In this document: piece by piece, positions 29,187-62,618 of the stretch
Numbering within the stretch: the first letter of the stretch is position 1
How the letters are laid out: the number at the start of each line of letters is the position of its first letter
NCBI GenBank assembly: GCA_051953515.1
Contig: JBQCIS010000114.1
Span: 2,226-66,225 of the forward strand
DNA length: 64,000 nt
Direction of reading: 5' to 3'
Source: Mucilaginibacter sp.
GTDB lineage: Bacteria; Bacteroidota; Bacteroidia; Sphingobacteriales; Sphingobacteriaceae
Notes under the pieces: generated by a model
The model's database searches: none
What the model saw: the letters and a program-made list of their open reading frames with translations, nothing else
Told to the model about the DNA's origin: nothing
Position numbers and translations under genes: made by a program

Positions 29187-29219
29187 GATCCACTATTGTT
29201 AAACGCGACATAATTATAA

Positions 29220-31608: not shown

Positions 31609-31611
31609 AAT

Positions 31612-35391: not shown

Positions 35392-35419
35392 AACTATCAA
35401 TGGCTGTTATTTCATATAT

Positions 35420-35446
35420 GACAACGAAAGTTAAATATTATACTCT
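35420..35446 (-). promoter_or_regulatory. Variant of the ECF-type promoter-like motif (AGAGTAT-N16-TGTC) upstream of the 542-aa unknown
   Basis: The minus strand reads attgAGAGTATaatatttaactttcgtTGTCatata, with the exact 16-nt spacer. TGTC ends 29 nt before the ATG at 35391. Confidence 0.35.
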
Positions 35447-35477
35447 CAATATTAGGTTTATGGGATGTTAGCCATAA

Positions 35478-36527: not shown

Positions 36528-36627
36528 GGAGGATAGCAATACAGATTATCTAAAAAGGACCTCATCAGAATGAACCCCAAAAACCAATTTGATTTAACAA
36601 ACGATCCGATATGGATTATGTACTTAA

Positions 36628-44200: not shown

Positions 44201-44546
44201 AGGCAATACCTGGTCGCCAAGCGACCCTAATGCATACTATCCAAATCTGCATTCTGCGCAGAATAATGGGATTAATGCCTATAACTACCAACCTTCCAGC
44301 TGGAGCGTTCAGAATGGTGCCTATGCACGTCTAAAAAATCTGGTTATTGGTTACACATTGCCCCAAAGCCTCATGAACCGTATAAAAGGAGTTTCAAAAA
44401 TAAGGGTGTTTGTATCGGGTAGTGACCTGACGGAAATAGATGGGATACATGACGGCTGGGACCCTGAAGCAACCAGTGGCGTAAGCGGAAATGAAAGATT
44501 TCCTTTTTACCGGCTGATAACTGTGGGTGCAAATGTTAGTTTCTAA
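41238..44546 (+). CDS. SusC/RagA-family TonB-dependent transporter (no STN/anti-sigma signalling domain)
   Basis: The signal peptide is followed directly by the CarboxypepD_reg-like domain (INGTVTDAVSKDPLPGVTV). Plug motifs LNEVVVVGYGTEKK and SFLKDASASIYGARAAFGVVLITTKK. Terminal strand VGANVSF. Confidence 0.95.
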   Translation: MSFFYKWKNSVRCLLLALLLIAGIDLTGFAQTREINGTVTDAVSKDPLPGVTVKISGTSIGTQTDASGKFHISATPNAKLTFSIIGYATREATVAESGIVNVQLAATKNDLNEVVVVGYGTEKKATVTGAIATVSSKVFEDRGPVNNPLESLQGQVAGVIVTRTSAQPGRENWNFQIRGATSTNAQDPLIVLDGVALSSNAELNTINPNDIDNISFLKDASASIYGARAAFGVVLITTKKAKAGKMQIKYDGQVSEKLLGLVPQLVNDQQWGAGLQQALINDNYGVAPTSYLWYQLALLAQNPPASGYIDITQLPGYAGSANGVLYNGTPLPSFGDVKDFTFFNTNMEKILWGNTTSQQHNLSFSGRSDKSGYYVSLGYENDGSPLRYGTNGSQRYNLRLNHDYSFSDRVKLETNISLERNDIQQPSLLSASGYSALSNYSQPGLPAFTSQGQPYAWGTVYSPPGMLRDGGANREYDNRIILNSTLTYNFAKHLNFTATAGYNDYFQDVRVDTKQVQYYNYAGNILVNTFPTNGALSNGANYYRQNTTEPYYNLIGRVSYDNTFNTVHHLTVMLGSSYERDEYDMFNARTFDLGDEDVPSLNLGVNNGTAGFVTDGETQNHYALGSYFGRATYSYKGKYLFEAIGRYDGSSKFIAADRWKVFGGANAGWVMSEENFLKDSKIINFLKLRASYGTTGNQGGIGLYDYIQSLNVNTGGPLLGNNTASTVTTAGSLVALNRTWETVIKRNLGVDFTLFRNFSGSFDIFRNENHNMLLGQVYPAELGASAPAQNIGDLRTWGWETQLTWKAKAGSVNYSISGTLTDNRNKLVHYGGKNVLVSGMNSTVEGYPLNSVFGLEYGGRLQNQAQVDAYNAKYAPTGSTNNIGLPIPTPLKNPAGQMSGLRPGDNTYKDVNGDGKLSIGTSTTNPGDLVYLGTNDPRYSFGLNLGLQWKGFDFFAILQGVGKRTILRSGNWRIPYTTIFQGQTNEYVGNTWSPSDPNAYYPNLHSAQNNGINAYNYQPSSWSVQNGAYARLKNLVIGYTLPQSLMNRIKGVSKIRVFVSGSDLTEIDGIHDGWDPEATSGVSGNERFPFYRLITVGANVSF

Positions 44547-44565
44547 AAAGTTAAACAAGATCAAG

Positions 44566-46389
44566 ATGAAAAATCATAGAACCGGATACTTAACTGTATT
44601 ATTCATAACCCTGTTGGGAATGATTCAATACAGCTGTAATAAAGCGTTAAACTTAAAGCCATTAGATCAGTTGTCTGATGCCGCTTACTTTAAAACACCG
44701 AATGACTTTAAAACATTCGCAAATCAATATTATACCTGGACAAAAACCTTTGCTACATTACCAGGCATTGGTTCAAATTATCATACGGATGACAAGTCGG
44801 ACCTGACCGGTGGCGGCGGTGCTGTAGGCGCAGGCACAAACACAATCCCCACTACAGACGGAACATGGAATGCCGCTTATGCAAGAATTCGTAATTGTAA
44901 TTATTTGCTTACTAAAGCAGCCACCTATTCCAATCCCACTGCAATAGCTCAGTACGTTGCAGAAGCTAAGTTTTTTCGGGCCATGCAGTATTTTGAACTA
45001 TTGGAAGATTATGGCGGAGTCCCGATCGTTACCGCTTTGCTTGATCCGTCGTCGCCAGCATTATATGGTTCACGCGCCTCAAGGGATGCAGTTGTAGATC
45101 AAATCGTCTCAGACTTGCAGGCTGCTATACCCGGGCTTCCGGTGTACCTTGCTTATGGGTCTTCAGATTATGGCCGCGTAACGCAAGGGGCGGCACAGGC
45201 TTTCCTGGGACGGGTTGCATTGTATGAGGGCACCTGGCAGAAATTCAGAAACGGAGATGCAACGCGATATAACAACTTGTTGGATATCAGTATCGCTGCA
45301 TCCAATAGTGTTATTACGGGTAATCATTATGCGTTATTTGGCACTCCTGCATCCGATGCGTTGGGTGGAGGAAACAGCAGTTTACTGGGCGACTCGGCAC
45401 TAAAATATTTGTTTATTTTAGAGAACCCGAAATCAAACCCTGCCGGTATTACAAAAGCAGCCAATCATGAATACATCTTTGCCACACGATATGATGATGT
45501 GTTGAAGGTTGCTAATAACAACATTAGCCATTCTGCTTCAATTGGCGTAAATCATAAAGAAATTGATATGTTCTTATGTGCAGACGGCCTTCCGGTAGAA
45601 AAATCGACGCTCTTCCAGGGATTTCAAACATACACCTCTGAGTTTCAAAACCGCGACAATAGATTAAGGTATACCGTTAAAATAGTAGGCAACTATTACT
45701 GGCAAGGGAATGCCAACTACAGGATAAACTGGACCAGCGATGCAGCTGATCGCGCCAATTCATTAGGCCCCGCTATACCTGGCGCAGGTTATGGCAGCCA
45801 GAAATGGGTGTCGGAAAGACAGGTACCCGATTATAAAGAATCAGAAGATTGTCCGATTATCAGATACGCAGAAGTGCTGCTGAACTATGCAGAGGCCGTT
45901 TACGAACGTAATGGCTCAATAAGCGATGCTGATTTGGATAAATCAATCAACCTGGTAAGGTTGCGCGTAAACCGGGATAACGGAATGCCGAAGCTAAGCA
46001 ACGCCTTTGTTAACACTAATGGTCTTGATATGCGCACAGAAATACGTCGTGAGCGAGCTGTGGAATTGTTTGATGAAGATTTCCGTTTAGATGATATCAA
46101 ACGCTGGCATAGTGCACAAACCGACCTGGTAACAAATGTTGGCGGGGTTGCTTACGGCAATGCAGCCGGATTTGTAAGCTCCTGGCCTATTGGCGTTAAA
46201 TTTACCGGTACACAAGCACAATTGGGCCCTAACCCCATTAAACCGGTTCCGAATAATCCGTTGGATGCAAACGGGTTCCTGATTACCGATCAAACAGCCA
46301 GAGGTTTCACAGAAAAGAACTATTTATACCCGCTGCCCGCGCAGGAATTGTCGCTTAATCCTAAACTGGTGCAAAACCCAGGCTGGTAA
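44566..46389 (+). CDS. SusD/RagB-family lipoprotein
   Basis: The ATG at 44566 gives a lipoprotein signal (LLGMIQYSC). C-terminal block RRERAVELFDEDFRLDDIKRWH ... LVQNPGW. Confidence 0.9.
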   Translation: MKNHRTGYLTVLFITLLGMIQYSCNKALNLKPLDQLSDAAYFKTPNDFKTFANQYYTWTKTFATLPGIGSNYHTDDKSDLTGGGGAVGAGTNTIPTTDGTWNAAYARIRNCNYLLTKAATYSNPTAIAQYVAEAKFFRAMQYFELLEDYGGVPIVTALLDPSSPALYGSRASRDAVVDQIVSDLQAAIPGLPVYLAYGSSDYGRVTQGAAQAFLGRVALYEGTWQKFRNGDATRYNNLLDISIAASNSVITGNHYALFGTPASDALGGGNSSLLGDSALKYLFILENPKSNPAGITKAANHEYIFATRYDDVLKVANNNISHSASIGVNHKEIDMFLCADGLPVEKSTLFQGFQTYTSEFQNRDNRLRYTVKIVGNYYWQGNANYRINWTSDAADRANSLGPAIPGAGYGSQKWVSERQVPDYKESEDCPIIRYAEVLLNYAEAVYERNGSISDADLDKSINLVRLRVNRDNGMPKLSNAFVNTNGLDMRTEIRRERAVELFDEDFRLDDIKRWHSAQTDLVTNVGGVAYGNAAGFVSSWPIGVKFTGTQAQLGPNPIKPVPNNPLDANGFLITDQTARGFTEKNYLYPLPAQELSLNPKLVQNPGW

Positions 46390-47624: not shown

Positions 47625-50600
47625 TTAATCAATGATGTTAAAGCGCTTTTTGAAAATGGGCCTTTTTTGTTTCAAAAACTCGGAAGGGTTTACGCCAAAC
47701 AGATTAAAGAACTGCGTACGGAAATATTTGATGCTATTGAATCCTGTTTCCAGCGCAACTTCATTCACGTTCATATCGGACTCAATCAGGAGCTGAGCAG
47801 CTTTTCGCAGACGGATATATCTTATAAAACCGTTAACCGTGTGCCCCGATAATGACTTAACTTTTCTGTACAGGTTAGAATGGCTCATACCGATTTCCGC
47901 TGCCAGTACTTTAATGGAAAAATTTTCATCTGTCAAGTGCCGCTCAACAATATAAATACACTTTTCGAGGAATAATTTATACTCATCTGAGATAACAATG
48001 TCAGGCGATTTAAGGGTAATTGTATTAAAAAAGTAGTCCTGTAAATTGGAACGCATCTGCAGCAGATTGGCAATGCGCGCTATCAGAACATCTTTTTCAA
48101 AAGGCTTCTGGATATAATCATCAGCACCGCTTTCAAGGCCTTTGATCTTGTTTTCCAGACCAGCGCTTGCCGTAAGCAGAATCATAGGAATATAACTAAG
48201 TTGCTGATCCTGTTTTATGATAGAACAGAGCTCTATTCCATTCATACCCGGCATCATTACATCACATACAATCATGTCAGGCTGTCTTTTTCGGGCAATT
48301 TCAAGACCGGCTTCCGCATTTTCAGCCTCGTATACCACATAAATTCCTTCCAAAATGGACCGGATATATTTCCTGATCTGATTGTCATCATCAATCACCA
48401 GGATCGTTCTCTTGTCTGTAAAGATTTCCCGTATCTGGTATGCTGCTTCATCAGCGGTTGTTACGTCCTGATTTTCTGTTTTACCGTCTGCTAATTCAGC
48501 AAGGAGGGCAGAGGCTTGATCTGATATTTCCACTATTTCGGTAGTGCCGGAATGTTGGGTACCTTTTGGCAATTCAAGGCTGAATATTGTGCCATGACCT
48601 GCGGCGCTTTTAAAAGTGAGCTGTCCGTGATGTTGATTGGTAAACTGTTTGGCAAGGTAAAGCCCGATGCCAAAACCGCTTTGCTGTCCCTGTTTGTTTG
48701 ATCGATAGAATTTTTCAAATATACTCGTCCCAACGTTTGCCGGGATACCTGGCCCGCTATCAGCCACCTCGATAACAATGTTATTGGTAAACTCTAACAA
48801 TCGTACGGTTACTTTTTGTCCTTTAGGCGTATACTTGATGGCGTTTGAAATAAGGTTGAATAGAATGATCTCAATCTTTTCGCGGTCGCCGTAAATAACT
48901 ATAGCATTTTCAGGAATTTCAAGTTCAAAACAGATATCATTCAACTTGGCCTGCTGAACGAAGCATAGGTAAACTTCGCGGCATACTACAACAATGTTTA
49001 AGCCGGCAATTTGCAAATTGTCAGCTACCGCATCAGCTTTTCTGAAAAGCAACAACTGGTCAACTAAGCTAAGCAGGCGTTTCGAGTTGCGGTAAACTAT
49101 ATCCAGCTCCCTGCGATCTTGGCCCGCGCTATTCTGTAACAGGTCTTTTACCGGATTAATGATGAGTGATAATGGTGTACGAAACTCATGCGAAACACCG
49201 GTGAAGAAATCAATACGGCGCTCATTCAGTTCTTTTTCTTTTTCCTGCAGGTTTCGCTGAAATTCGGCATTTGCATTGGCCAGTTTTACTTCATACTTTA
49301 ACCTGTTTTCCCTAAACCGGTTCCTGAAGAACCAATAGAGAAGTCCGGTTAAAATGAGGGTATATGCAATATAAGCCCAAATAGTACGGTACCACGGCGG
49401 CAATACAATAATCTGTAAAGTAAGGTTTTTCTGTATCCACTTCCCATCAGGATTAGTACAATTGATGCGAAGCGTATAATTGCCCGGATCTAACCGTGTA
49501 TATAGTATATTGCGCTGCTGGCCTGCGTCAATCCAATCCCGGTCCCAACCCTGAAGCATATAACGATACCTGATTCTTTCCTGGGCAGTAAACTCTATTG
49601 CGGCAAAGCGAAACGATAATGATGCTTTTGCGAAAGGGACAATTAGCGACGTGAGCCGTGCATGGCTATCTGCAACCATATAACCATCTTGCGGGTTCGG
49701 CTCCTTACCATTGATTTTAAGATCCGTTAACGCAATATCAGGATCATTTCGCAGTGCGCCCAATTGTTCCGGGGCAAAGATTGTAAGACCACCCGTCCCG
49801 CCGAAGGCCAGTTCGCCGCTTCTTAATGCAGCAGATGCATTGAAGTTGAATTCCCTGCTGGCCAAGCCATCACTGGTGAAGAAATTGGTAAACGACTGGT
49901 CGCGCGGATCAAAGCGACACAGGCCATTGTATGTGCTCAGCCATAATTTATGCGCCCGGTCTTCCTCAATAGATAATATGTTATTGTCGCACAGACCGGT
50001 CTTAGTGGTGTATTGACTGGTAACCTTCCCCTGAGATTTTGCAAAGTACATTAACCCGCCTTCTGTTCCCAGCCAAAGGTCGCCGTTGGAGCACAGACGG
50101 ATCGACCTTACCGGTTTACCTATACGATAATATTTAAATTTTTTTCGTTTTGCATCAATCTCATATATCCCATCAAAGTTGCCGGCCCATAACTTGCCGT
50201 ACTTATCTTCGCGTAAAGCGAGGATATTAGATATTTCTGCGTCGTAAAGCAAAAAGGCGTCCGAATGCCGGTCATAAAGATATAGCCCGTCCTGTAATCC
50301 GCTTGCCCAGATATTCCCATTATGGTCCAGGCAAAAGCACCAGAAGGTAAGGGCGTTTTTGCCGTTAGCACCATGCCCGAAATAGGTTTTAAATTTGTTT
50401 TCGTCAGGCTGATAAAGATCGATGCCGCCACCATAGGTTGCTATCCATATTTTTTTAGCAGAATCCTGTATAATGCTGGTTACAAAGTCGGAGCTTATTG
50501 TTCCGGGAATACGCGGATCCCTGCGAAGGTTTGTAAACCGGCTTTCTTTACGATTCCAAATACTTAAACCGCCACCGTCGGTACCGATCCATATTTTTTG

Positions 50601-51755
50601 ATCGCGATCCTCAAATACCGATTTTACAAAATTGCTGATAAGGCTATTGGAGTTTAACGGATCATGCCGTACGTTTTGAAACTGACTTTTTACATCATCT
50701 ATAACGTTGATTCCGCCGCGCAACGTTCCGATCCATTTTCGGCCGTCCCTATCCAATAACATGCTATAAACAGCATCGCTGGAAAGCGCTTGCTGGTTAT
50801 AACCTGCTGATAAATAGCTAACGTGACTGCGGCTATTGTCGAGGATCTGAATACCGCCTCCATCAGTGCCTACCCATAAAGTTCCGTCAGGCATTTGCCG
50901 TAAACAGGTTACCCTATTTGACCGGAATCCTGATGTTGATTCGCTGAATATCTTATCATAGCCGTTATTTTGGGTATTAAAGTGATACAGGCCCACTGTT
51001 GTGCCCACCCACAGGTTCTGGTGATCGGGATAGAGGCAAGTGCCTGAGGCCACGCTTGAATTAATAGCATGCAGCTTTCTTTTTACAGGGTCGTATTCAT
51101 AAAGACCGTTTCCGGCTATCATTAAATAGGTTTTACCGCCAGGAAGAATCAATAATGCATCAACAGAGTAATCGTACCGGGTAATACCATTATTATTCCA
51201 TGGAATACAATGTCCAACGTTATTTCCTTTGTCAAAAACGATTAACCCGCCGTTAAGGGTTGCAGCATATATCTGACCGTGCTTGTCTATCTGGACATCA
51301 TGAATATAATTGGTGATCCGGGCATGCGTTCCGTCGGGATGAACAACATAGGCAGCGGCGAACTGTTCGGTCAGCGGGTTCAATACGCTGATACCTTGCC
51401 GCGTTCCTACCCATAACCTGTTAAGCAGATCCTCTGTAATGCAGTTTACATAGCTGTGAATAATTGAAGTTGTATCTTCAGGCTGATTGCGGTAAACCCG
51501 GAAATCATAGCCATCATAACGGTTCAGGCCATTATAAGTTCCAAACCAAAGGAGGCCCTTACTGTCCTGAAATATGCAACGTATTTCGCTGTTCGATAGT
51601 CCATCCTTTAAACCAATTTTATCAATATTATATAAAGGGCTGGCTAAAGTAAGCTGTGCCGACAGAAGCCAAAAAAAGGTTATCAATCCGGTAAAAAAAG
51701 GGAAGCTTTTTACAATTCCTAAAGACAGACTCGCGCTCCTGTTCTTGCCGATCAT
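47625..51755 (-). CDS. Hybrid two-component system sensor kinase/response regulator with AraC-type HTH (HTCS-2)
   Basis: The first ATG is at 51755 (MIGKNRS...); the track start at 51770 is TTG. Propeller repeats (LWFGTYNGL, LWVGTDGGGI), TM IWAYIAYTLILTGLLYWFF, HisKA FTGVSHEFRTPLSLI, HATPase GFGIGLYLAK, receiver ILVIDDDNQIR...CDVMMPGMNG, AraC HTH YFRTQFFNLFGVNPSEF. Confidence 0.95.
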   Translation of the reverse strand: MIGKNRSASLSLGIVKSFPFFTGLITFFWLLSAQLTLASPLYNIDKIGLKDGLSNSEIRCIFQDSKGLLWFGTYNGLNRYDGYDFRVYRNQPEDTTSIIHSYVNCITEDLLNRLWVGTRQGISVLNPLTEQFAAAYVVHPDGTHARITNYIHDVQIDKHGQIYAATLNGGLIVFDKGNNVGHCIPWNNNGITRYDYSVDALLILPGGKTYLMIAGNGLYEYDPVKRKLHAINSSVASGTCLYPDHQNLWVGTTVGLYHFNTQNNGYDKIFSESTSGFRSNRVTCLRQMPDGTLWVGTDGGGIQILDNSRSHVSYLSAGYNQQALSSDAVYSMLLDRDGRKWIGTLRGGINVIDDVKSQFQNVRHDPLNSNSLISNFVKSVFEDRDQKIWIGTDGGGLSIWNRKESRFTNLRRDPRIPGTISSDFVTSIIQDSAKKIWIATYGGGIDLYQPDENKFKTYFGHGANGKNALTFWCFCLDHNGNIWASGLQDGLYLYDRHSDAFLLYDAEISNILALREDKYGKLWAGNFDGIYEIDAKRKKFKYYRIGKPVRSIRLCSNGDLWLGTEGGLMYFAKSQGKVTSQYTTKTGLCDNNILSIEEDRAHKLWLSTYNGLCRFDPRDQSFTNFFTSDGLASREFNFNASAALRSGELAFGGTGGLTIFAPEQLGALRNDPDIALTDLKINGKEPNPQDGYMVADSHARLTSLIVPFAKASLSFRFAAIEFTAQERIRYRYMLQGWDRDWIDAGQQRNILYTRLDPGNYTLRINCTNPDGKWIQKNLTLQIIVLPPWYRTIWAYIAYTLILTGLLYWFFRNRFRENRLKYEVKLANANAEFQRNLQEKEKELNERRIDFFTGVSHEFRTPLSLIINPVKDLLQNSAGQDRRELDIVYRNSKRLLSLVDQLLLFRKADAVADNLQIAGLNIVVVCREVYLCFVQQAKLNDICFELEIPENAIVIYGDREKIEIILFNLISNAIKYTPKGQKVTVRLLEFTNNIVIEVADSGPGIPANVGTSIFEKFYRSNKQGQQSGFGIGLYLAKQFTNQHHGQLTFKSAAGHGTIFSLELPKGTQHSGTTEIVEISDQASALLAELADGKTENQDVTTADEAAYQIREIFTDKRTILVIDDDNQIRKYIRSILEGIYVVYEAENAEAGLEIARKRQPDMIVCDVMMPGMNGIELCSIIKQDQQLSYIPMILLTASAGLENKIKGLESGADDYIQKPFEKDVLIARIANLLQMRSNLQDYFFNTITLKSPDIVISDEYKLFLEKCIYIVERHLTDENFSIKVLAAEIGMSHSNLYRKVKSLSGHTVNGFIRYIRLRKAAQLLIESDMNVNEVALETGFNSIKYFRTQFFNLFGVNPSEFLKQKRPIFKKRFNIID

Positions 51756-52106
51756 CGATTTCTGTGCCAATTGTTCAGATTGAAAAACGCAGAGACATTA
51801 TAATAGAATGGAATTATTTTTCCGTACGGGGAGGCTTTGGTTGGTTGAGACGCTTTAAAATAGTTTCCCAGCTTTTTTTTACGCGCTCTTCATCCACCTG
51901 TGGCTTTTTGATTTTGAACGTGTCGGAAATATCAGTTTCCTTAATTTTTTTCATCGCAGTCTCTTATGCCATTGTACGGCTGCAAATAACAACCCTGTTT
52001 TGTTAACAAATGTATAAGAAATATTGAATAATGGACAGATAATGTACTTATAGATATGAACATAGCTTCTGATAGAGAAGGTTGCCGTCTTAAATTTTCT
52101 TAATGA

Positions 52107-52159: not shown

Positions 52160-53644
52160 ATGTCTAAATTTCTGTTACCATTAATCATTATTATCTTATT
52201 TGTATTCAATTACGCAGATGCCCAGCTCATTACCTATAAACAACCGGATTGTAATATGGTCAGTCATGCCTATGGAGTTGAGGTAAGGCAGGGGAAAGGC
52301 GATTGGCAGAATGCAGGCGTTTATCAGGCTGATGTCGCCGCTAAATTAGATGCGCAACATGTTACAAAAAAAACATGCTTTACATATTTCGATTGCTCGG
52401 GTAATGTTAACGTCAGGGTAAAAGTTAACTATAGCAACGTAAGGACCGCGATAGTAAGACCTGCTTCTTATGGAATTGTTCCCAGGATCAGGGGCAATTT
52501 TATAGAGTTTTCAATGAAGCCGTCTCAATATATTTCTTTAGAGGTGAACGGCGACATTTTTCAGAATCTTCAGCTTTTTTCAAACGTTATTGAAAAAGAC
52601 AGGCCAAAGGCCGGCGATCCTAATGTGATCTACTTTGGCCCCGGAGTGCATAATATTGGTCGGATGGAAGTACCCGCTAACAAGACGGTTTATATTGCAG
52701 GAGGTGCAATTGTAGAAGGCGGGTTTATAATGGATCACGTGAAAAACATAAATATTCGCGGCCGCGGTATTCTAACACAATATATCGTACGACCCGACCA
52801 AAATCTCAGCGAAGCCAGGCCGTTGTCTCACGGTGAGCGCGATGACCAGATGCTGATACAGTATAGTGAAAATGTAAATGTAAGCGGCATTATAGAAGTG
52901 CCTAAAGGTTATTCGGTAATGGTCGGGCAGTCGAAACAGATCAGTATTTCGGATTTTAAATCATTTAGCGCGCTGGGTAATGCGGATGGGATCGATATAT
53001 TTTGCAGCAGCAGCGTGGCAATCAATCGCATCTTTATGCGAAACTCAGACGACTGTATCGCAATCTATGGTCATCGCTGGCATTACTATGGCAATACCAA
53101 TAATATTACCATTGATAATGCTACGCTTTGGGCCGATGTTGCACATCCTGTACTCATTGGTACGCATGGCGATACAAGTCATCCTGATACGTTACAAAAT
53201 ATCGGGTTTCACAATCTGGTAATTCTGGATCAGCATGAAAACCAGCTCGACTACCAGGGATGCATGGCAATTAATGCAGGAGATAGCAATTTGATAAGGA
53301 ATATCAGTTTCGAGAATGTGGAGGTTGGAAATATTCGCAAGGGCCAGTTATTTAACCTTCGCGTCATGTTTAACAGAAAATATAATACATCACCGGGACG
53401 CGGAATAGTGCATATCCGGTTTAAAAATGTGAGTTATACGGGTTCACGCGCCAACATGTCTGTTATCAGTGGATATGATGATCTTCGCACCGTCAAAGAT
53501 GTTGTTTTTGAAAATCTTAAAATTAATGGAACGTTGATATACGATAAGATGACAACCAAACCGGGATTCTATAAAACCGGCGACATGGCAAACATTTTTA
53601 TCGGCGAACATACCGAGGGAATAAACTTTATTACAGGCAACTAA
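52160..53644 (+). CDS. Right-handed beta-helix glycoside hydrolase, GH28-like (polygalacturonase-type motifs; GH49-like N-terminal sandwich possible)
   Basis: Signal peptide. GNADGIDIF (NxDG), MRNSDDCIAIYG (DDC), LIGTHGD (HG) and IRFKNV (R-x-K) occur in GH28 order. Confidence 0.6.
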   Translation: MSKFLLPLIIIILFVFNYADAQLITYKQPDCNMVSHAYGVEVRQGKGDWQNAGVYQADVAAKLDAQHVTKKTCFTYFDCSGNVNVRVKVNYSNVRTAIVRPASYGIVPRIRGNFIEFSMKPSQYISLEVNGDIFQNLQLFSNVIEKDRPKAGDPNVIYFGPGVHNIGRMEVPANKTVYIAGGAIVEGGFIMDHVKNINIRGRGILTQYIVRPDQNLSEARPLSHGERDDQMLIQYSENVNVSGIIEVPKGYSVMVGQSKQISISDFKSFSALGNADGIDIFCSSSVAINRIFMRNSDDCIAIYGHRWHYYGNTNNITIDNATLWADVAHPVLIGTHGDTSHPDTLQNIGFHNLVILDQHENQLDYQGCMAINAGDSNLIRNISFENVEVGNIRKGQLFNLRVMFNRKYNTSPGRGIVHIRFKNVSYTGSRANMSVISGYDDLRTVKDVVFENLKINGTLIYDKMTTKPGFYKTGDMANIFIGEHTEGINFITGN

Positions 53645-53766: not shown

Positions 53767-55035
53767 CTATCTGGTATAAGTTAAGGTGCCAAATCCTAAT
53801 TGATCATAACCACCGCTTGTTGTGCCGTAGTCACCGCCGCCGCCTTCGGGCCTTACTTGTGCGGCATAAGCTGCAATATTAGGCGAACTTAGTCCGCGCA
53901 ATTCAACATAGTAGCCGTAAAGTAATTCCCAGCTTGGACGTATGTCGCCTCTGCCGGAAGAAGAGATTACTGTTTGTGATTGCGGCGCGCAGGTGGTACC
54001 GTTGCCCCAATTGTAAGTGGTAAATGGCACGGTGTTCCCCAGATTATAAGACGCTATGTATTCGCACATCCCCTGTATCCTTGGTCTGACGTCTTTCCAT
54101 GGATTGTATTGAAAAAGATCCTGTCCCTGGTTGAAAGCCATTTGGCAGATCGCTCCGTAAAGGGATACATCAAGGCAACTATGACCCTGGTCGCGGCCAC
54201 TTTCCTGGCATTGCGAAATGCCACCCTGATCGGGATAAGCAAATGGCGCTACGTGTCCGTACGCGCCATTTCCGGCCCCGCTTTTGAAATAACTGATCGC
54301 TTCATTAAACTTGGCTGTGTCATCACATAATACTCCGATTGACAGCACGCTGGCCATACTACAGGCGTCCCAGTTGGCCCAGTAATTGGTGATGCAGGCA
54401 CCGTTGTGATTGGTCAGAAAATCATGATTCATTGGATAAAATATAGTTAGCATCATATTCTGGAAACGGGCAAAGTCTGCCGCTGACCACCCGCTGTACG
54501 ATCGCATAATCTCGGCAGCATTTGCAAATTCATAACCATAGATACCTGCCGCGAGAAAACGATCTGCCGTTCCCTGAATAGAAGTGAGGGTTGAAGACCA
54601 GGCATTCATGATGCTAACGGCCTCATCGGCATTTGCAGTGGTGCCGGCAATCTTCCACCGCAGAGCGTTCTGGTAAGCGGCAGCGATATCATTATACAAT
54701 TTTGAATAATTTTCGGGATAGCCGCTGCCTCGGTAGACGATAGCCGCCGGCCCCTGCATTACATAGGTGGATGAGGAATGCGAGTTAGCAAGCAGTTTAT
54801 CCCATCCTGAAGTTTGTGGCTGTGCGCCCGTGTTAACCTTGCTGATCATTCTGGAAAAGTCTGCCGCACTGTGCAGCAGTCCGGGGTGGGCGAAGGTTGT
54901 TGGGAGCGAATTTACCTGCCGCGCATTTTGTGCAGAAGTTGTGGGACCGGTTTGTGTGGCTGATGCATTTTTCTTACATGAAGACGCAATGCAGGTGCAT
55001 ACGGCCACGGTGGCCATTAAAAGTGTTGCTTTCAT
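53767..55035 (-). CDS. Alginate-lyase-fold polysaccharide lyase-like lipoprotein (paralog of 30490..31608)
   Basis: Lipoprotein signal (CIASSC). FAHPGLLHSAADFSRM, NYWANWDACSMASVLSIGVL and QCQESGRDQGHSCLDVS are present. Confidence 0.5.
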   Translation of the reverse strand: MKATLLMATVAVCTCIASSCKKNASATQTGPTTSAQNARQVNSLPTTFAHPGLLHSAADFSRMISKVNTGAQPQTSGWDKLLANSHSSSTYVMQGPAAIVYRGSGYPENYSKLYNDIAAAYQNALRWKIAGTTANADEAVSIMNAWSSTLTSIQGTADRFLAAGIYGYEFANAAEIMRSYSGWSAADFARFQNMMLTIFYPMNHDFLTNHNGACITNYWANWDACSMASVLSIGVLCDDTAKFNEAISYFKSGAGNGAYGHVAPFAYPDQGGISQCQESGRDQGHSCLDVSLYGAICQMAFNQGQDLFQYNPWKDVRPRIQGMCEYIASYNLGNTVPFTTYNWGNGTTCAPQSQTVISSSGRGDIRPSWELLYGYYVELRGLSSPNIAAYAAQVRPEGGGGDYGTTSGGYDQLGFGTLTYTR

Positions 55036-55379: not shown

Positions 55380-58300
55380 ATGAAAGAAAGATTTACGTAT
55401 TACTATCGTGGACTATACAAACATTCCATACGCTGGCTTTTGCTGTGCGTTGTCGTTTTGATAACGATGATGAATGTTTCCGCCCAAACGTTTATACACC
55501 CCGGTATCCCGTTTACACGGCAGGATCTTGATCAGCTAAAAGCTAATATCACAAAACAGCCATGGCTGGCGGGGTATACGGCACTTCAAAACGATGCGCA
55601 TTCGCAGTTAAGCTATGCGCCCAAGGGGCCATTTGCTACCGTGACACGCGCGCCTAACCTGAATAACGCTGCATGGATAGATGATATGCAGGCAATACAT
55701 AACCTCACCTTTATGTATGTGTTCACCGGCGATAGCGCATACGCCCGAAAAGCAACCAATCTGCTCGATGCCTGGGCGGCAACTAACACCAGTTGGGGCG
55801 GCAATGAAAATATGCTCGACATTGGCGATATGGCGCCATATTTTGTGGTAGGTGCAGATATTTTAAAAAGCACTTTTCCGGGCTGGAGCAGTGCTAATGA
55901 TCAGCACGTTAATAATTATTTCCGCAATGTATTGTTTCCAACATCCTATGTTCCCAATCCGCTTAGGGATAACAATAAAGGCGCTCTGCAATGCCAGATC
56001 GCGATTGGTATAGCTGCATATCTGAATGACCCGGTGCTTTGGCAGCAGGCAATAGAAGTATACCGCATGGATGCCGGGGCTGCTCTGCGTTGCAGCCTGC
56101 CCAATGGCGAGGTGGGCGATTCAGGCCGTGATGACCACTGGTTTGTGCAAATACAGGCCTTAGGCTGGAGTGCAGAAGTAGCCTGGAAACAAGGAATTGA
56201 TCTTTTCAGCGAATTCAATAATCGTTTATTAGCCATTGGCGAACTTTACGCACAGTACAGCCAGGCCCCCGGTACGGTTAGCTTTATACCTTTTGGCGGG
56301 TATTCCAATTATTGGACAAATTGGGGAATACCACCAGGTTATGTGCATCAGAGCCCCTTTAACAATATTATAAAGGGAGCTTATGAGCTTAGGAAGGGGC
56401 TTTCAGCACCTTATACCGAACAGATCAGAGCACTTGCCGGGGAGGGCCAATGGTCTTTTCTCTACCTGAAATCAGCAGATACTTCGCATGCTGCGCCATT
56501 GCCGCCAATTGTTTACCCCGCAGATCAGGCACAGCCAGCTATTGCGCTTACCAATCTGGACATCGGCAATACTGGAATAAACGGCAATGCTGCTTACAGC
56601 AACGGCACCTGGACCGCAAACGGCGCAGGTAACTCGGTGGCTACTGCCGTTAATTATACTTTCGAACCGGTAACAGGTAACGCAGGGATGATTGTTAAGA
56701 TTGACAGCAATTCTGTTAGTTCGGCAATCAGTGGATTAATGATTCGCCAGTCGCTTGCAACAACGGCTAATTACGCCGAGGTTAACCTGTCGGCTACGGG
56801 TAACGTCAGTTCCTCGTCAAGGGGAAGTACCGGAACTTCCGATTATACACATTACGGCCCCAAAGCGCCCTGGTGGTTAAAAATTGAGCGTGTGGGTAAC
56901 CGCATATTTACTTATCACTCAAAGGATGGCGTAAATTGGAGCTGTAATGCGCAGTTTATACTTACACTGCCTGCCAATTTTTATATCGGCTTTTATACAA
57001 TTTCCAATAACTCATCTACACTTAACCGGGCGGTCTTCACCAATGTCGCTATAAACAATACGTCGCCGGCTGGTTCACCGGTAATTACCAGCGCTACAAG
57101 CGCTTCTGCTACAGTGGGCACGTCGTTTAGCTATGCTACAACCGCAAGCGGGAGTCCTGCTCTTTTCCGTGCAACCGGTTTACCCGCGGGACTTGCTATT
57201 GATAGTTTATCGGGTAATATATCGGGTAGTCCAACCGCAATCGGACAATCTATCGTTACGCTTCAGGCCATTAACAGCAACGGAACCGGGGCGTCTACAT
57301 TGGTTATTAATACCACAGCGAATATCGCTCCTGTAGCTCCTGCGGGTGTAGCGGCAACTGTTGTTAATGGGTTTAATATCAATCTGGCGTGGCAAGCAGT
57401 GCCAAATGCATCAACTTATACCGTTAAAAGATCATTAAATGCCGCCGGTCCTTTTACGGTGCTGCAAAGCGGTATTACGGGAACAAGCTTTATTGATGCG
57501 TCGCCAACTCCCGAGGTGAGCAATTATTACATTATTACCGCATCAGCAGGCACATTGGAAGGGCCGGCTTCGACTGTTGTTTCTGCGTCAGTACCACCGG
57601 CAACCCCTAATGCACCGGTAGTAGTGAGTAAGAGCAAGGAAATAGACCTTAGTTGGAGCTCCGCAGCAGGTGCTGCTACCTATAACGTTAAGCGCAGCAC
57701 GGTAAGCGGAGGCCCATACACCACAATAGCCAATGTTACGGCTACCAGTTATATCGACCTTAATGTAAGTAACGGCACTCCCTATTATTATGTCATTTCA
57801 TCGGTTGGGCAAACCAAGGAAGGTCTTAACTCAGCGGAGTCATTTGGCGTTCCGGGATCAACCAGCTTAACCTGGAGTACAAACCCTGCGACTGACTCAT
57901 TAAAACTGAGTCGCAACTGGGTGGAAAATGCCAGTCCTTCAACACCGGCTATACTCACATTTCAGACCAGTGCCGATACTGTGCTAATCAATGATATTCA
58001 AAACCTTGGTGTTGCCCGGTTTCAGTTCAATGCCGGGGCCAATAACTATACCATCAGCGGCGACACACTTCATTTAAGAAACGATCTGGTTAACAATGCC
58101 GGTAATGTTCAAACTTTTACAACGCCGGCTGTGCTTGATACGCTTCTGAATGTGAATACACCGGCGCAGAGCGATAATGTTACTATTAATTCGGTAATAA
58201 GCGGCAAAGGCACATTGATGAAGAATGGTGCGGGATATTTATTCTTATCAGGAAAGAATACCTATTCAGGCGGAACCATTATTAACGGCAGCGGTACAAA

Positions 58301-61300
58301 CTGGCCGCCAACGTGCTCGGTAGTCATATCCGGCGCAGGAACCGGAACGCCGTCCGCACCTGCTTCCGGGCCTCTTGGAACGGGTATGATCACCATGAAT
58401 GGTGGTGACATTTATTCATCCGGATCGGACGCGACACTTTATAATGATATTACGGTTGCCGCAGGTAAAACCAGTTATATTAACCAAACAACCAATGCCA
58501 TTTACTTATATGGCCGTTTGTTGGGCAGTGGTACCATCATACAGGATGGTAATACCTATGCGGGCTTACATCTTATTGGCGACAACAGCAATTTTACAGG
58601 TACATTTATTTCGAAACTGCGCAGTGGGAATAACCGCGTACGTTTTGAGTCACCTCAGGCCGGCAGCGCCAAGGCAAATTGGCTGCTGGACGCCAACGGA
58701 AACGACTGTCAGGGAATAATGTTTGGGACCGGTACCCTCAACTTTGGTTCACTTTCCGGTCGTGGAGCGATAAGGACTGATGGTGGTGGTAGCCCAATAA
58801 TCAGTATCGGCGCATTAAATAGCAATACCAACTATGGAGGAACAATGACGGGCTCGATGAACGTAGTGAAGGTAGGTACCGGTACACTTATGTTTAGTGG
58901 AAACCAGGCATATTATGGAACAACAACCATACAAGGAGGTACTTTTATGGTTAATAACGATCCGAACACCGGTACATTTGGAAGCCCTGTTACAGTAACC
59001 GGCGGCGCTTTTGGTGGTACTGGCCAAACTACATCAATTACCACTATCGGTACAGGTTCAGGCGCTGGCGCAGCACTTGCTCCGGGCAATTCAGGTATCG
59101 GTACCATAAAAGTGGGTAGCCTCGTGATGAACAGCGACGGTACTTATATAGCAGAAATGAGCACCAGTAAAGCTACTGCCGACCAAGTAAGTACAGGTTC
59201 CGTAAGTCTGGTAAATCAGCCTTCGTTAAAAATATCGGCAATTGATTCTTTATCGCTGGATAGTGGAGCATCGTTCACCATAATAAATAATACAGGAAGC
59301 AACCCGGTATCCGGTACATTTAAAGGTTTACCAGAGCTTTCTACTATACAGGTGGGCAATTTTACGCTGCGTATCACCTATAAAGGCGGTACAGGTAATG
59401 ACGTGGTTTTGATGGATGATCGTACTACGCCGGTTATTATCACGAGTGCATTGGTAGATACTACAGTGGTAGGGCGCTCCATGACTTATACTATCACAGG
59501 TATCAAATCGCCAAATAAATTTTCGGCATCGGGACTGCCGCCAGGGTTAACTGTTGACAGCCTCAGCGGTAAAATATCCGGTACCCCAACTCAATCGGGC
59601 AATTTTAACGTTACCCTTACAGCAGCAAACAGCACAACCAGTGCTACCGCAACCCTTAAACTACTTGTCGACAGCAGGACGGTTAATGGCTTGCTCGCGG
59701 CATCAGGCGATGCGACAGACATTTTGCAGTGGAACACAATCCCCGGGTTCACTTATAATGTTAAACGCGCTACAAATTCAGGCGGTCCGTATACTACTAT
59801 TGGCACTGCCTCAACCGCTAATTTTACAGATGCATCAGTTGTTAATGGATCAACTTATTTTTACGTGGTTGCAGGTGTGGATTCTGCAGGAGAGAGCCCT
59901 GCCAGTGCAGAAGTGGTTGCGAAACCCAATGTTGGTCAGCGTGACTTTTATCAATTTGACGAAGCGTCCGGCACAACGGGCATTGACAGCTGGGGTGCCA
60001 ACCATGCCTTATTAGCGAGCACCGCAACCCGTGGAACAGGTAAATATGGTCAATCTTTATTGCTTAACGGCTCAGCTACCTCTTATGCAAGTCTTCCGCA
60101 AGGCATCTTCAGTACGTTAAATAACTTTACTATATCGGCGTGGGTACGAATGGACGCGATCAGCACATGGATGCGCGTTTTCGATTTTGGAAACAGTACT
60201 ACCCAGTACATGTTCCTTACCGTTCAGGCAGGGGTTACCAGCGGAAAATCAATTATTCGTTACGCTGCCAAGAACGGATCGGCAGCTGAGCAGGATTTAA
60301 ATTATAATTATACCTTCCCATTAAATACATGGACGTATCTTGCCCTTACGCGGTCTGGTAATATTACAACACTATATGTAAATGGCGCTTTAGCAGCATC
60401 TTCTACTAATATTACCATTAACCCCTCTAATTTAGGTACCACTGTACAAAACTATCTTGGAAAGTCACAATTCTCTGGTGATCCAATCTTTAAAGGGTCG
60501 ATTGATAATTTTAAAGTGTATAGCAGAGCGTTAAGCGCATCCGAGATTGCGAATGATATGCTTGGTGATCAAACTATCAGTTTCGCAGCTATACCAACCC
60601 ACCTCGTTGGCGATCCGGATTTTGCTCCTAACGCTTCGGCAACGTCAGGCCTGCCGGTAAGCTTCACAAGCTCGGATACCACAGTGGCTACAATTGTGAA
60701 TGGCAATATACATATAATAGGGGCGGGCACATCTGTGATAACTGCCACGCAGGCCGGGAATAACAGTTTCAAAGCCGCGACGCCGGTAAATCAGACACTA
60801 ACGGTGATGAAGCAGAATCAGACCATCACTTTTAATGCATTGCCGTTAAAACTGGTAACCGACAGCGATTTCTCCGCTGGTGCACAGGCAAGTTCCGGTC
60901 TGCCGGTTAGCTACAGTAGTTCTGATACCACCGTTGCCACTGTCGTGGGCAGCAACCTGCACATTGTTGGTGCCGGAACAGCAGCTATTACTGCTACCCA
61001 GAACGGTAATGCTACCTATAATGCAGCCACAGCGGTTACACAAACGTTAATGGTTAACAAGCTAAGCCAGTCGATCACTTTTCCTTCTGTAGCAGCTGCA
61101 AGACCAGGCGATGCGGACATCCAGCTCACGGCAACTTCCAGCTCGGGGCTGCCGGTGGTTTATGGCAGCTCAGACACCAGCGTTGTTGAAATTGTTAATA
61201 ACAAGCTACATATCGTTGGCTCAGGCAGCAGTACTATCACCGCATCTCAAGCAGGGAATGCCCGTTACTATTCTGCTTCAGCAAGTATAATGTTTAATGT

Positions 61301-62558
61301 ATTGCCATACCATATTGTGGTGCAATACCTGGATGGTGACAAGGGGCAGACGACAACCAATGCCATCAGGCCTTATCTGCAAATTGTTAACCAGGATTCG
61401 GTTGCCGTCCACTACAACGAACTGACTGCTCGTTACTGGTTTACAGCCGAAAATTATCCGGGGACTATCAATACCTGGATAGACTATGCGCAATTAGGTA
61501 GTGGCAATATCAGCATGAAATATGTTCAATTGCCAAACCCCGCTACCGGAGCGCTTGGCTATATTGAATATTCATTTACTACCAGTGCAAATCTTACCGG
61601 TGGTACAAGTTCAGGCTCTATCCAATCCAGGTTTGCTAACCAGGACTGGTCGAATTTTACGCAAACAGACGACTATTCTTACATCCCTGGCGCAAGCAGT
61701 TATGTGGTAAATAATCATATCACGCTTTACCGCAATGGCGTATTGATTTATGGACAGGAACCTAAAGCTGTAAATGCTACAACGGCCCTAACGGTATCTT
61801 ATCAAAATCAGAATCAAAAAACAGACGGCAATACTATCAGTACCTACCTTCTTGTGAATAATACCGGAAACCAGACGGTGAATTACAGCGATCTGGCCGT
61901 TCGCTACTGGTTTACAAGCGAAGGTACCGCACCTCTGAACATGACAGTTGATTATGCCAAACTTGGCAATGGTAATGTTAGCGGGCAATTTACAAGGTTA
62001 AGTCCGGCGCTTGACAGTGCAGATACTTATCTTGAATTGCATTTTGCTGCCGGAACCTTGTATCCGTTGAGTAATTCAGGAAATATTCAATACCAGATAA
62101 ATAAGACCGATTGGTCGGCGTTCAATGAAGCCAATGACTACTCATATCTGCCTAAAGGGCCAATGGCGCTGAATGATCATATTACCGTGTATTATAAAGG
62201 CCAATTGATCTTCGGGAAAGAGCCGCCGGCAGCTGTAGGCAATTTAACTGCGGTTAATTCCAATGCGTCGTTGTTTCAGCCAAACAATAAGTCGGTGGTT
62301 CCTGACAATGTTCAGCACAATACTATTTATCCCAATCCAACCAATATGGGCAGGTTCAGTATTAAGCTGACGTCAGATCTTTACCAAAAGAATGTCAGCC
62401 TGACCATTCGCGATTTGAGCGGCAAGGTTTTGCAGGCGGGTAGTTATCAGGCCAATAACGGGGTAATTGATGTACAGTTAAACGCTAAGTATTATCCCGG
62501 CACTTACCTTGTACAACTGAATAACCTTACACCTTTGCGCTTAATGGTGAACCCGTAA
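55380..62558 (+). CDS. Giant (2,392 aa) T9SS-secreted mosaic protein carrying an alginate-lyase-fold domain, an autotransporter-type beta-helix, LamG, Ig-like repeats and two CBM3 modules
   Basis: Domain order with approximate aa positions:
- signal peptide
- lyase-fold domain (37-375: [33 protein letters not shown])
- concanavalin/DUF1349-like (385-555: [24 protein letters not shown])
- He_PIG-like (556-640)
- 2 FN3-like (645-820)
- autotransporter-associated beta-strand repeats (820-1345: [29 protein letters not shown])
- He_PIG
- FN3
- LamG/Laminin_G_3 (1516-1725: [10 protein letters not shown]...VFDFGNS...[16 protein letters not shown])
- 3 Ig-like repeats
- 2 CBM3
- CTD (IYPNPTN...). Confidence 0.85.
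60561..61306 (+). repeat. Three tandem ~83-85-aa Ig-like (Big-type) repeats inside the giant gene
   Basis: Units start at about 60561, 60816 and 61065. Each has Q(T/S)I(S/T)F...(S/T)SGLPV(S/V)(F/Y)(T/S/G)SSDT(T/S)V(A/V)...(I/L)H(I)(I/V)G(A/S)G...ITA(T/S)Q.GN. Confidence 0.75.
61307..62234 (+). other. Two tandem CBM3-type carbohydrate-binding modules (domains of the giant protein)
   Basis: Module 1 has [27 protein letters not shown] ... [21 protein letters not shown] ... [15 protein letters not shown]. Module 2 has [27 protein letters not shown] ... [14 protein letters not shown] ... [17 protein letters not shown] ... [15 protein letters not shown]. Both track the clostridial CBM3a pattern as I remember it (LRYYYT ... 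ADTYLEISFTGGTL ... GRFAKNDWSNYTQSNDYSF ... YLNGVLVWGKEP). Confidence 0.8.
62320..62555 (+). other. T9SS (Por) C-terminal sorting domain of the giant protein
   Basis: [17 protein letters not shown]...[12 protein letters not shown]...[17 protein letters not shown] matches the typical ~80-aa CTD pattern. Confidence 0.75.
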
Positions 62559-62575
62559 AAAAGAAAAGCAAATGA

Positions 62576-62618
62576 AGCAGTGATCGGTCATACAGCCGGT
62601 TACTGCTTTTGTTTTTTT
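62576..62618 (+). terminator. Rho-independent terminator after the giant gene
   Basis: Imperfect stem AGCAGTGATCGG ... CCGGTTACTGCT followed by TTTTGTTTTTTT. Confidence 0.6.

Follow-up and report, generated by a model that had tools for sequence, protein, structure and literature searches.

A giant gene lies in a 64,000-nucleotide stretch of DNA from Mucilaginibacter sp. (contig JBQCIS010000114.1, positions 2,226 to 66,225 of the forward strand), which was analyzed as a whole and is referred to here as the window. The gene is a single uninterrupted open reading frame (ORF) of 2,392 codons on the + strand, running from an ATG at 55380 to a stop codon at 62556-62558 and followed directly 3' by a terminator-like hairpin (62574-62609, +) with a 15-bp stem, 6 G-C pairs and a T-run. 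Its product, the giant protein, is 100% identical to a protein of a Mucilaginibacter metagenome-assembled genome (MAG) at NCBI. On inspection, the first 35 residues (55380-55484) have the basic n-region, hydrophobic core and c-region of a Sec signal peptide, with cleavage predicted between VSA and Q, and the resulting mature N-terminus, Q-T/R-F-x-HPG, is common to most of the orthologs sampled. At the other end of the protein, residues 2316-2392 (62325-62558 with the stop codon) form a type A C-terminal sorting domain for a type IX secretion system (T9SS), matched over residues 2316-2382 by TIGR04183 (31.5 bits, cut-off 23) and by PF18962 (33.3 bits, cut-off 27, for the isolated segment). The signal peptide and the type A domain together support the assignment of the giant protein as a predicted T9SS cargo. 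The original prediction, made from the sequence letters, of one ORF at 55380-62558 with a signal peptide and a Por-type C-terminal domain was borne out by the ORF call, by inspection and by these profile matches.

Between the two export signals, Pfam and TIGRFAM profiles, fold models and sequence matches in the Protein Data Bank (PDB) delineated a long series of modules, in the order that had been proposed from the sequence. The mature protein begins with an alpha/alpha toroid of polysaccharide-lyase fold, which we call the head (residues 36-379, 55485-56516) and which was identified by PF05426, by an AlphaFold2 (AF2) model and by Foldseek; the Alginate_lyase profile PF05426 matches residues 98-298 with 38.9 bits against a Pfam cut-off of 22.2. 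Packed on the head is a beta-sandwich (residues 380-562, 56517-57065) resembling concanavalin A (ConA) and DUF1349 domains. The DUF1349-like label given to it by the original prediction holds at the level of the fold, through Foldseek matches in the PDB to the DUF1349 structures 3o12 and 3mep (template modelling score TMt 0.68-0.70), and not at the level of the profile, PF07081 scoring 26.6 bits under a Pfam cut-off of 32.4. The sandwich is followed by a He_PIG immunoglobulin (Ig)-like domain (residues 567-642, 57078-57305; PF05345, 32.2 bits) and by two fibronectin type III (FN3)-like modules (residues 651-740 and 741-830, 57330-57869), internal copies that are 36-38% identical. In phmmer searches the second of these matches the solved clostridial Fn3-like domains 3mpc (E 6e-20) and 5g56, with E-values of the order of 1e-19.

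Residues 826-1350 (57855-59429) make up a right-handed beta-helix of PATR (autotransporter-associated) repeats, ~525 amino acids (aa) long, which is matched by PF12951 (39.8 bits) and TIGR02601 (29.6 bits). The AF2 model of this segment is all-beta and folds as a beta-helix with a predicted local distance difference test score (pLDDT) of 89.9. Its best fold matches in Foldseek are autotransporter passengers, namely EspP (E 1e-4), Hap, Ag43, pertactin and EspC, and the third-ranked match is the helix of CBM89 (7jvi), a carbohydrate-binding module (CBM). No beta-helix enzyme of glycoside hydrolase family GH28 or of the pectate/alginate-lyase type was found among the top 50 Foldseek matches. We considered whether this segment might be a further catalytic domain, of the GH28 or pectate-lyase type, and rejected the idea, as the matches are adhesin passengers and CBM89; the sole lyase-related helix in the top 50, the fucoidan-lyase domain 7xzc, has an E-value of 1.7 and was regarded as noise.

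The beta-helix is followed by a second He_PIG domain (residues 1355-1429, 59442-59666; PF05345, 40.9 bits), a third FN3-like module recognized by its internal similarity to the first two (residues 1436-1530, 59685-59969) and a LamG jelly-roll of the Laminin_G_3 type (residues 1566-1724, 60075-60551; PF13385, 104 bits, E 8e-30). Three tandem beta-rich repeats of ~85 aa come next (residues 1731-1985, 60570-61334). In BLAST each of them finds three copies, and they are Big_2-like by motif, with no Pfam match above cut-off and no PDB sequence match. Two CBM3 modules precede the sorting domain, one at residues 1982-2128 (61323-61763) and the other at residues 2135-2286 (61782-62237; best stretch, residues 2139-2220). 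As a pair they score 134 bits with PF00942 and match solved CBM3 domains that bind cellulose, at E-values from 5e-30 to 1e-20. The first matches the CBM3 of Bacillus subtilis Cel5A (2l8a) with an E-value of 5e-30 and 6d5b with 4e-29, and of the positions that align with 2l8a it retains DYAQ, Arg and Trp; the second matches 4jo5, 6xx1 and CipA 1nbc at E-values of ~1e-22 (8e-22 for 1nbc). Both modules look genuine by these matches, as had been claimed for them, and cellulose binding is predicted. The other modules listed by the original prediction were also recovered; it had missed the second He_PIG domain and the third FN3-like module, and its three Ig-like repeats exist as repeats, the Ig label itself having no support in Pfam or the PDB.

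To model the head together with its sandwich, AF2 was run on residues 36-565 from an alignment of 31 sequences, among them Streptomyces homologs and both of the stand-alone lyase-like paralogs encoded in the window (paralogs 2 and 3). The model, an alpha/alpha toroid followed by a beta-sandwich, has a pLDDT of 93.4 and a predicted template modelling (TM) score of 0.92. In a Foldseek search of the PDB, ranks 1-23 are all taken by polysaccharide lyases (PL families) plus one dermatan-sulfate epimerase; they include PL17 Alg17c, PL15 Atu3025, PL39 and the chondroitinase/glycosaminoglycan-lyase entries 9o3q, 8khv and 8r71 (PL33/35/37). The fold of the head is also matched by PL5 A1-III (1qaz, TMt 0.63, E 8e-7), by the Bacteroides ovatus protein 3nnb (TMt 0.64) and by the PL38 enzyme BoPL38 (8bdq, TMt 0.58). 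Sequence identity to the lyases matched by Foldseek is only 8-17%, a single-sequence search of the PDB with the head returned nothing significant, and the head profile reaches the N-terminal helices of PL17 at an E-value of 1.6e-5 and PL5 A1-III at 0.02. The lyase fold originally assigned to the head is thus upheld by the confidence of the model and by fold matches that are nearly all lyases.

Nine residues are invariant in the 31-sequence alignment, namely D102, N199, R250, D251, H253, Q271, D274, R282 and Y335, the last being the sole Tyr that is invariant across the broad head alignment. The mapping of these residues onto PL5 comes from one marginal profile alignment (E 0.02), the only residue-level alignment obtained. 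In this alignment N199 falls on PL5 Asn191 and R250 on Arg239, which in PL5 serve in carboxylate neutralization and substrate distortion and whose equivalents in BoPL38 are N242 and R292. H253 falls on PL5 His245 (H297 in BoPL38), or two residues off in an alternative gap placement, and D102 is a possible equivalent of BoPL38 D108.

Around these residues the head reads SGRDD-HW where the two paralogs read SGRDQGH, a difference that amounts to a one-residue deletion keeping R, D and H; Chitinophaga orthologs read GRDEGHW. We compared the best 120 database clusters segment by segment with BLAST, and all conservation counts below refer to these clusters. In 119 homologs, conservation of the GRDxHW motif is 98% or higher, and the identity of the head is 53-92% in 119 of the 120. 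The possibility that the head is a decayed paralog was therefore rejected: given this conservation and the same residue pattern in the stand-alone paralogs, GRDDHW is a family signature and not a sign of decay. The original prediction had described the difference between GRDDHW and GRDQGH correctly, and had taken from it that the head may be a binding or altered-specificity domain; the conservation of the motif and the retention of R, D and H speak against a decayed copy that only binds. Its further claim that the head is the most divergent of three paralogs is true only marginally, as the head is 27-29% identical to the two window paralogs and these are 31% identical to each other.

Conservation extends far beyond the motif. 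All 120 clusters have the sandwich and the beta-helix, 119 have the head and 119 have LamG, and at least 119 share the N-terminal ~1,730 aa, which consist of the head, the beta-sandwich, He_PIG, two FN3 modules, the beta-helix, He_PIG, FN3 and LamG. About 20 clusters, several of them from named Mucilaginibacter and Pedobacter species, are co-linear with the giant protein over at least 96% of its length, and relatives from Flavobacterium, Chitinophaga, Arcicella and Paraflavitalea share the first ~1,730 aa. The C-terminal part is variable: the 85-aa repeat occurs in 0-8 copies, CBM3 modules are present in 70 of the 120, and homologs may carry additional modules (LamG, pentaxin, DUF1080 or SprB). 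In ~18 of the 120, a type B sorting domain (PF13585, CHU_C) replaces type A; the carriers are P0005, P0009, P0012, P0016, P0017, P0020, P0021, P0023, P0025-P0028, P0031, P0033, P0035, P0036, P0045 and P0046. Such a switch within one ortholog group implies different secretion adaptors for otherwise co-linear proteins. An earlier idea of a constant scaffold with swapped N-terminal heads was withdrawn, since the segment-wise BLAST shows that the head and the N-terminal ~1,730 aa are constant and that the C-terminal modules vary. Database names of the homologs are all automatic ("cellulose binding domain-containing", "autotransporter-associated beta strand protein", "LamG-like jellyroll fold domain-containing"), and literature searches retrieved no published study of the family; a search for recently numbered polysaccharide-lyase families gave unrelated results only. 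The combination of domains, for which the original prediction knew of no described enzyme, is therefore common in databases and unstudied; the claim of uniqueness does not hold, and what stands of it is that no homolog of this architecture was found to be characterized.

The unit of head and sandwich has a wider distribution still. Its profile, searched against 1.84 billion representatives clustered at 50% identity, retrieved 12,288 clusters at E<=1e-10, of which 3,261 reach E<=1e-30. The best 150 matches are proteins of ~320 to 3,900 aa in which the unit is N-terminal or internal, a minority of the top matches aligning only via repeated DUF1349-like sandwiches, and stand-alone proteins made of head and sandwich also exist (P0127, 583 aa; P0129; P0135; P0139). 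The wide spread and the stand-alone versions indicate that head and sandwich form a widely reused, uncharacterized module.

Upstream of the giant gene, the window contains a SusC/SusD-like outer-membrane import pair (41238-46389, +; Plug, CarbopepD_reg_2, SusD_RagB), followed by a hybrid two-component system (HTCS) regulator (47625-51770, -; Reg_prop, Y_Y_Y, HisKA, HATPase_c, Response_reg, HTH_18) that is likely the regulator of the giant-gene locus. Next are a gene for a divergent GH28-like beta-helix enzyme (52160-53644, +; PF00295, E 1e-10), which has no sequence relative in the PDB, and paralog 2 (53767-55035, -; PF05426, E 4e-10), a stand-alone lyase-fold protein 27% identical to the head whose gene is divergent from the giant gene. 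An extracytoplasmic function (ECF) sigma factor gene is also nearby, and a convergent GH31 gene lies downstream. A scan of the region for sigma-70 promoters gave background level only, and the sigma-70 consensus says nothing for Bacteroidota. Paralog 3 (30490-31608, +), which carries the SGRDQGH motif, is encoded farther away, with a GH88 gene directly upstream of it (29220-31608 for the two, +) and then a gene for a DUF4350 protein. GH88 is a family of unsaturated glucuronyl hydrolases, which act on the unsaturated products of lyases. No polysaccharide-lyase domain was found in the window other than those of the lyase-like paralogs and the head. Because GH88 is encoded directly upstream of paralog 3 and no other such domain was found, a lyase is expected in the locus.

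A 545-aa protein encoded at 33763-35400 (-) has no Pfam domain and no sequence relative in the PDB, and it may be an unrecognized enzyme of the same pathway. Three LacI regulators are encoded at 28078-36539. The first part of the window, 1-28000, is dense in carbohydrate-active enzymes (CAZymes) and related genes: GH30, GH2, a major facilitator superfamily (MFS) sugar transporter, a 1,126-aa protein with DUF5107 and TPR domains, an esterase, three PF11790 "Glyco_hydro_cc" genes and two sulfatases, as well as another SusC/D pair and another HTCS. The presence of sulfatases in a locus of a soil Mucilaginibacter is worth a look.

We collected 60 loci anchored on the beta-helix, 7 from genome and contig look-ups and 53 from a metagenome scan, and counted neighbors in the 34 of them whose flanks reach 8 kb or more; no contig was retrieved by exact sequence for the homologs P0001 and P0080. 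The most frequent conserved neighbor is an ortholog of the GH28-like gene (39-71% identity), which 16 of the 34 carry no more than 10 kb from the giant gene and which is kept across Mucilaginibacter, Pedobacter, Flavobacterium, Arcicella and Paraflavitalea. The linkage is thus real and not universal. Orthologs of the 545-aa protein (32-34% identity) occur within the same distance in 8 of the 34, often beside the GH28-like gene; a lyase-like paralog is present in ~8 and GH97 in 7. Orthologs of paralog 2 adjoin the giant gene elsewhere as well, for example in L004, L009, L016 and L017, and orthologs of the HTCS stand beside it in L001 (62%) and L003 (41%). In Arcicella (L006, 47%) and Paraflavitalea (L004, 37%), orthologs of the SusC/D pair of the window precede the giant gene. 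In Chitinophaga and Arcicella (L003, L006) the giant gene has SusC/D directly upstream, and a SusD match is placed likewise in L045. With a linked SusC/SusD pair and a dedicated regulator in the window and in other loci, the giant gene is a component of a polysaccharide utilization locus (PUL).

Gene order illustrates how this setting varies. In M. gossypii the order is HTCS, LacI, GH97, GH28-like and giant gene, and in Pedobacter sp. W3I1 it is two lyase-like paralogs, a Pel9A-like gene, a gene for a 534-aa protein of unknown function, LacI, GH28-like, giant gene and PorV. Flavobacterium sp. 1 and F. undicola share the order GH28, a gene for a 540-aa protein of unknown function, heparinase II/III-like, GH28-like and giant gene, and the Flavobacterium sp. 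1 locus continues with GH2, GH43, GH95, GH30 and GH88. The Arcicella locus reads GH28-like, SusC, SusD and giant gene; that of Paraflavitalea reads SusC, SusD, GH28-like, GH97, giant gene and an ortholog of paralog 2; and that of Chitinophaga reads SusC, SusD, giant gene, GH97 and HTCS. The mix of enzymes encoded in these loci (GH28, GH88, GH43, GH95, GH2, GH97/31 and lyase-like proteins) points to a complex glycan containing uronic acids, of the pectin or gum class. This agrees with the acidic-polymer setting suggested by the original prediction, which is also consistent with the GH28-like, GH88 and lyase-like genes, SusC/D and the hybrid two-component regulators near the giant gene.

Other features of the related loci were also observed. 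Three Pedobacter-like loci (L005, 18121-19296; L037; L055) have a gene for PorV, the shuttle for type A cargo of the T9SS, at a distance of 0.2-1.3 kb downstream of the giant ortholog. In F. undicola (L007) two giant paralogs stand in tandem (10001-17011 and 17613-24978), alike in their N-terminal core and unlike in their C-terminal modules, and two family members are present on several other contigs also. A Parasediminibacterium locus (L008, 232-2214 and 10001-11752) encodes a 583-aa stand-alone protein of head and sandwich along with SusC, GH43, GH39 and a GH95-like protein, and also a second PF05426 protein with CBM96 and a T9SS tail of its own.

Taken together, we lean toward the view, with confidence only somewhat above even, that the giant protein is a T9SS-exported, PUL-associated protein that binds cellulose and that binds, and probably cleaves, an acidic plant-wall glycan; we infer its export route, anchoring, geometry, catalysis and substrate alike. 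The signal peptide would take the protein to the periplasm by the Sec route, and the type A domain would hand it over to the T9SS, with subsequent release or attachment to the surface by the C-terminal end. The two CBM3 modules near that end would bind cellulose. A stalk composed of the three 85-aa repeats, LamG, the three FN3-like modules, the two He_PIG domains and the ~525-aa beta-helix would keep the N-terminal unit at a distance from the cell, and a rough estimate from domain sizes suggests a stalk length of several tens of nanometres. The toroid and sandwich at its tip would bind, and probably cleave by beta-elimination, a matrix polysaccharide containing uronic acids, most likely of a plant-wall class (pectin or gum). 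The GH28-like enzyme, GH88, GH31 and the stand-alone lyase-like paralogs could then process the fragments, SusC/D would take them up, and the hybrid two-component regulator would sense them.

Several observations weigh against this reading, some of which concern the catalytic residues. In the profile alignment to PL5, the position of PL5 His192 (BoPL38 H243) is occupied by K200, a site where Chitinophaga orthologs have Q and the window paralogs have W. PL5 Tyr246 (BoPL38 Y298) falls on W254, in place of which relatives have S, T or A; the alternative gap placement puts V256 there, so that a Tyr is found in neither register. Transferred through the shared PL5 motif, the constellation of PL38 would give the same picture: the N, the R and the first His would be kept, and H243 and Y298 would not. 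According to the BoPL38 study, H243 and Y298, the equivalents of His192 and Tyr246, are the proton-abstracting residues, and the main role of N242, R292, D108 and H297 is to grip and distort the substrate. The family, stand-alone paralogs included, thus appears from its alignments to keep the gripping residues and to be without both canonical catalysts. Catalysis would then need other residues, and the invariant Y335 or the conserved K200 are candidate substitutes. In addition, the GH28-like gene is seen in only about half of the loci, and the presence of CBM3 modules in only part of the homologs makes cellulose tethering an accessory feature of the family. T9SS genes are absent from the window; mandatory T9SS components have been reported for another Mucilaginibacter species (bioRxiv 10.64898/2025.12.01.691665). 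Finally, neither the database homologs nor the literature searches yielded a characterized member of the family.

The missing catalysts make a non-catalytic role credible, and this is the main rival explanation: the head would be a binding module derived from an enzyme and the giant protein an adhesin or an outsized surface glycan-binding protein (SGBP), which tethers the cell or captures polymer for SusC/D and leaves cleavage to the GH28-like and other enzymes. We regard this as rather unlikely, though as the strongest of the alternatives. In its favor, both general base and acid residues of PL5 and PL38 are replaced, and the N, R, D and H297-like His that were kept are mainly substrate-binding in BoPL38. 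All other domains of the protein are of types that bind or serve as spacers (CBM3, LamG, He_PIG and FN3, together with a beta-helix that is adhesin-like and has a precedent in CBM89), and the Chitinophaga and Arcicella giant genes directly follow SusC/D, in the usual position of an SGBP gene. However, small stand-alone paralogs share this residue pattern, and one of these is encoded beside a GH88 that needs a lyase product, in a window where no other lyase was found. The ~nine polar residues that are invariant from Bacteroidota to Streptomyces fit catalysis at least as well as binding, and the layout of toroid plus sandwich resembles that of catalytic lyase units.

It is considerably less probable that the head is an enzyme with another chemistry, such as a uronate C5-epimerase or a hydrolase on a toroid fold. 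The fold matches include human dermatan-sulfate epimerase 1 (6hzn), BoPL38 has an epimerase side activity, and the canonical acid/base pair of the lyases is absent, all of which would suit an epimerase or hydrolase; but nearly all fold matches are lyases, the GH88 of the window points to unsaturated products, and no residue pattern typical of toroid-fold hydrolases was identified in the head. A gliding-motility adhesin of the SprB/RemA type, with glycan-binding modules that give traction, is very improbable. The giant protein is indeed a very large, repeat-rich T9SS cargo, and the ~18 of the top 120 homologs with a type B (CHU_C) domain bear the Joint Genome Institute (JGI) name "gliding motility-associated", a few homologs having SprB repeats in the variable C-terminal part; yet the giant protein itself has a type A domain and no SprB repeats, its setting is that of CAZymes and a PUL with a conserved GH28-like partner, and no sprF/porP-like gene follows the giant gene, downstream of which there are only terminators and the convergent GH31 gene. 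Lastly, the idea that the giant ORF is an assembly or annotation artefact, a chimera of several fused genes, which the source of the sequence in a MAG and the internal repeats might suggest and which the original prediction had itself named as its possible refutation, is effectively refuted: co-linear orthologs of 2,367-2,405 aa (88, 69, 64 and 53% identity) in independent assemblies, including contigs of >6 Mb from cultured Mucilaginibacter and Pedobacter strains, rule out a chimera, the internal protein repeats are diverged (43-61% identity for the 85-aa repeats, 36-38% for FN3-like, 46% for He_PIG and 41% for CBM3) with no internal DNA repeat >39 nt, and a clean terminator follows the stop codon.

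A more specific proposal can be made, which we offer tentatively, as a possibility to which we would not give even chances. The unit of head and sandwich would represent an unclassified polysaccharide-lyase family that keeps the Asn, Arg and His of PL5 and PL38 and has moved proton transfer to other residues, with Y335 and K200 as candidates. The giant protein would be the initiating enzyme, displayed through the T9SS, of an undescribed PUL that is spread across four orders of soil Bacteroidota and targets a complex acidic plant-wall glycan. Its ~1,730-aa core, comprising the lyase unit, the beta-helix and LamG, would then be one machine and not a set of shuffled parts.

Soil and rhizosphere Bacteroidota such as Mucilaginibacter, Pedobacter, Chitinophaga and Flavobacterium are major degraders of plant and microbial glycans, and to our knowledge most of their T9SS cargo is unstudied. 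The giant family is a good target among these proteins, being abundant, strongly conserved and tied to a recurring and poorly characterized gene set that consists of the divergent GH28-like enzyme, the 545-aa protein with no recognizable domain and the stand-alone lyase-like paralogs. An active head would establish a large lyase family whose catalytic set is non-canonical and point to the substrate of a widespread PUL, and the CBM3 pair and stalk would then offer a concrete model of a Gram-negative cell that holds on to cellulose and at the same time cuts the acidic matrix around it. A head that only binds would be a case of an enzyme fold reused as a lectin. We regard the family as a lead for enzyme discovery and not as a surprising new system.

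Comparison with known systems places the giant protein more precisely. PL5 (A1-III, 1qaz/1hv6; AlgL) and PL38 (BoPL38, 8bdq) have the same single-domain alpha/alpha toroid fold as the head, to which they are 13-17% identical with a profile E-value of 0.02; in the head, by that alignment, the catalytic His becomes K200 and the catalytic Tyr W254. Unlike these enzymes, the head is fused to a DUF1349-like sandwich and to ~1,800 aa of non-catalytic modules, and its setting is in soil and not in an alginate locus. The best Foldseek E-values (1e-11 to 1e-8) were obtained with two-domain lyases, namely PL17 Alg17c (4nei), PL15 Atu3025 (3a0o), PL39 Dp0100 (6jp4) and the PL33/35/37 entries 8r71, 8khv and 9o3q, in which, as in the giant protein, an N-terminal helical toroid is followed by a beta-sandwich. 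However, TM scores to these are only 0.31-0.46 with a root-mean-square deviation of ~17 Å, sequence similarity is confined to the N-terminal helices, and the sandwich of the giant protein, unlike theirs, is a small ConA-like/DUF1349 domain. Among T9SS-secreted enzymes, Flavobacterium johnsoniae ChiA is a large multi-domain chitinase from a SusC/D-type locus that acts as an extracellular initiating enzyme. It differs from the giant protein in having two GH18 catalytic domains and an atypical C-terminal domain, and the two are not known to be related in sequence.

A parallel in architecture is CelAly of Aquimarina sp. 2-A2, a characterized T9SS cargo made up of GH5, PL31, Big and a C-terminal domain, with two proven catalytic domains, for which the authors propose an attack on composite cell wall; multimodular enzymes related to it occur in flavobacteria (PMC13235733). 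CelAly and the giant protein both have a Por-type C-terminal domain and combine a lyase module, Ig-like modules and cellulose-directed modules in one chain. The giant protein differs in having one putative lyase-like head, CBM3 modules in place of a cellulase and a core of beta-helix and LamG, and in coming from soil and not from the sea; CelAly is also much smaller. Multi-modular T9SS cellulases have been described in "Ca. Paraporphyromonas polyenzymogenes" (PMC5831590). For the beta-helix, one known counterpart is CBM89, a large non-catalytic xylan-binding right-handed beta-helix from the xylanase CapGH10 of a capybara-gut Bacteroidaceae (PDB 7jvi; PMC8810776), to which the PATR helix is a weak match (E 1.5e-3, TM ~0.2). 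Autotransporter passengers match better, and the type V autotransporters (EspP, 3sze; Hap, 3syj; Ag43; pertactin) share PATR repeats and a beta-helix with the giant protein. Unlike them, the giant protein has a T9SS C-terminal domain and carries its helix in mid-chain; no profile match to an autotransporter beta-barrel translocator was found in it, and the giant protein is therefore not a type V protein. We conclude that the giant protein belongs to a kind already known, that of multi-modular CAZymes with T9SS tails in or near PULs. What would be new, judged from sequence comparison, is a head that by its catalytic residues is predicted to be neither PL5 nor PL38, a large uncharacterized two-domain family putatively defined by head and sandwich, and a ~1,730-aa core that appears unusually fixed across four orders of Bacteroidota.

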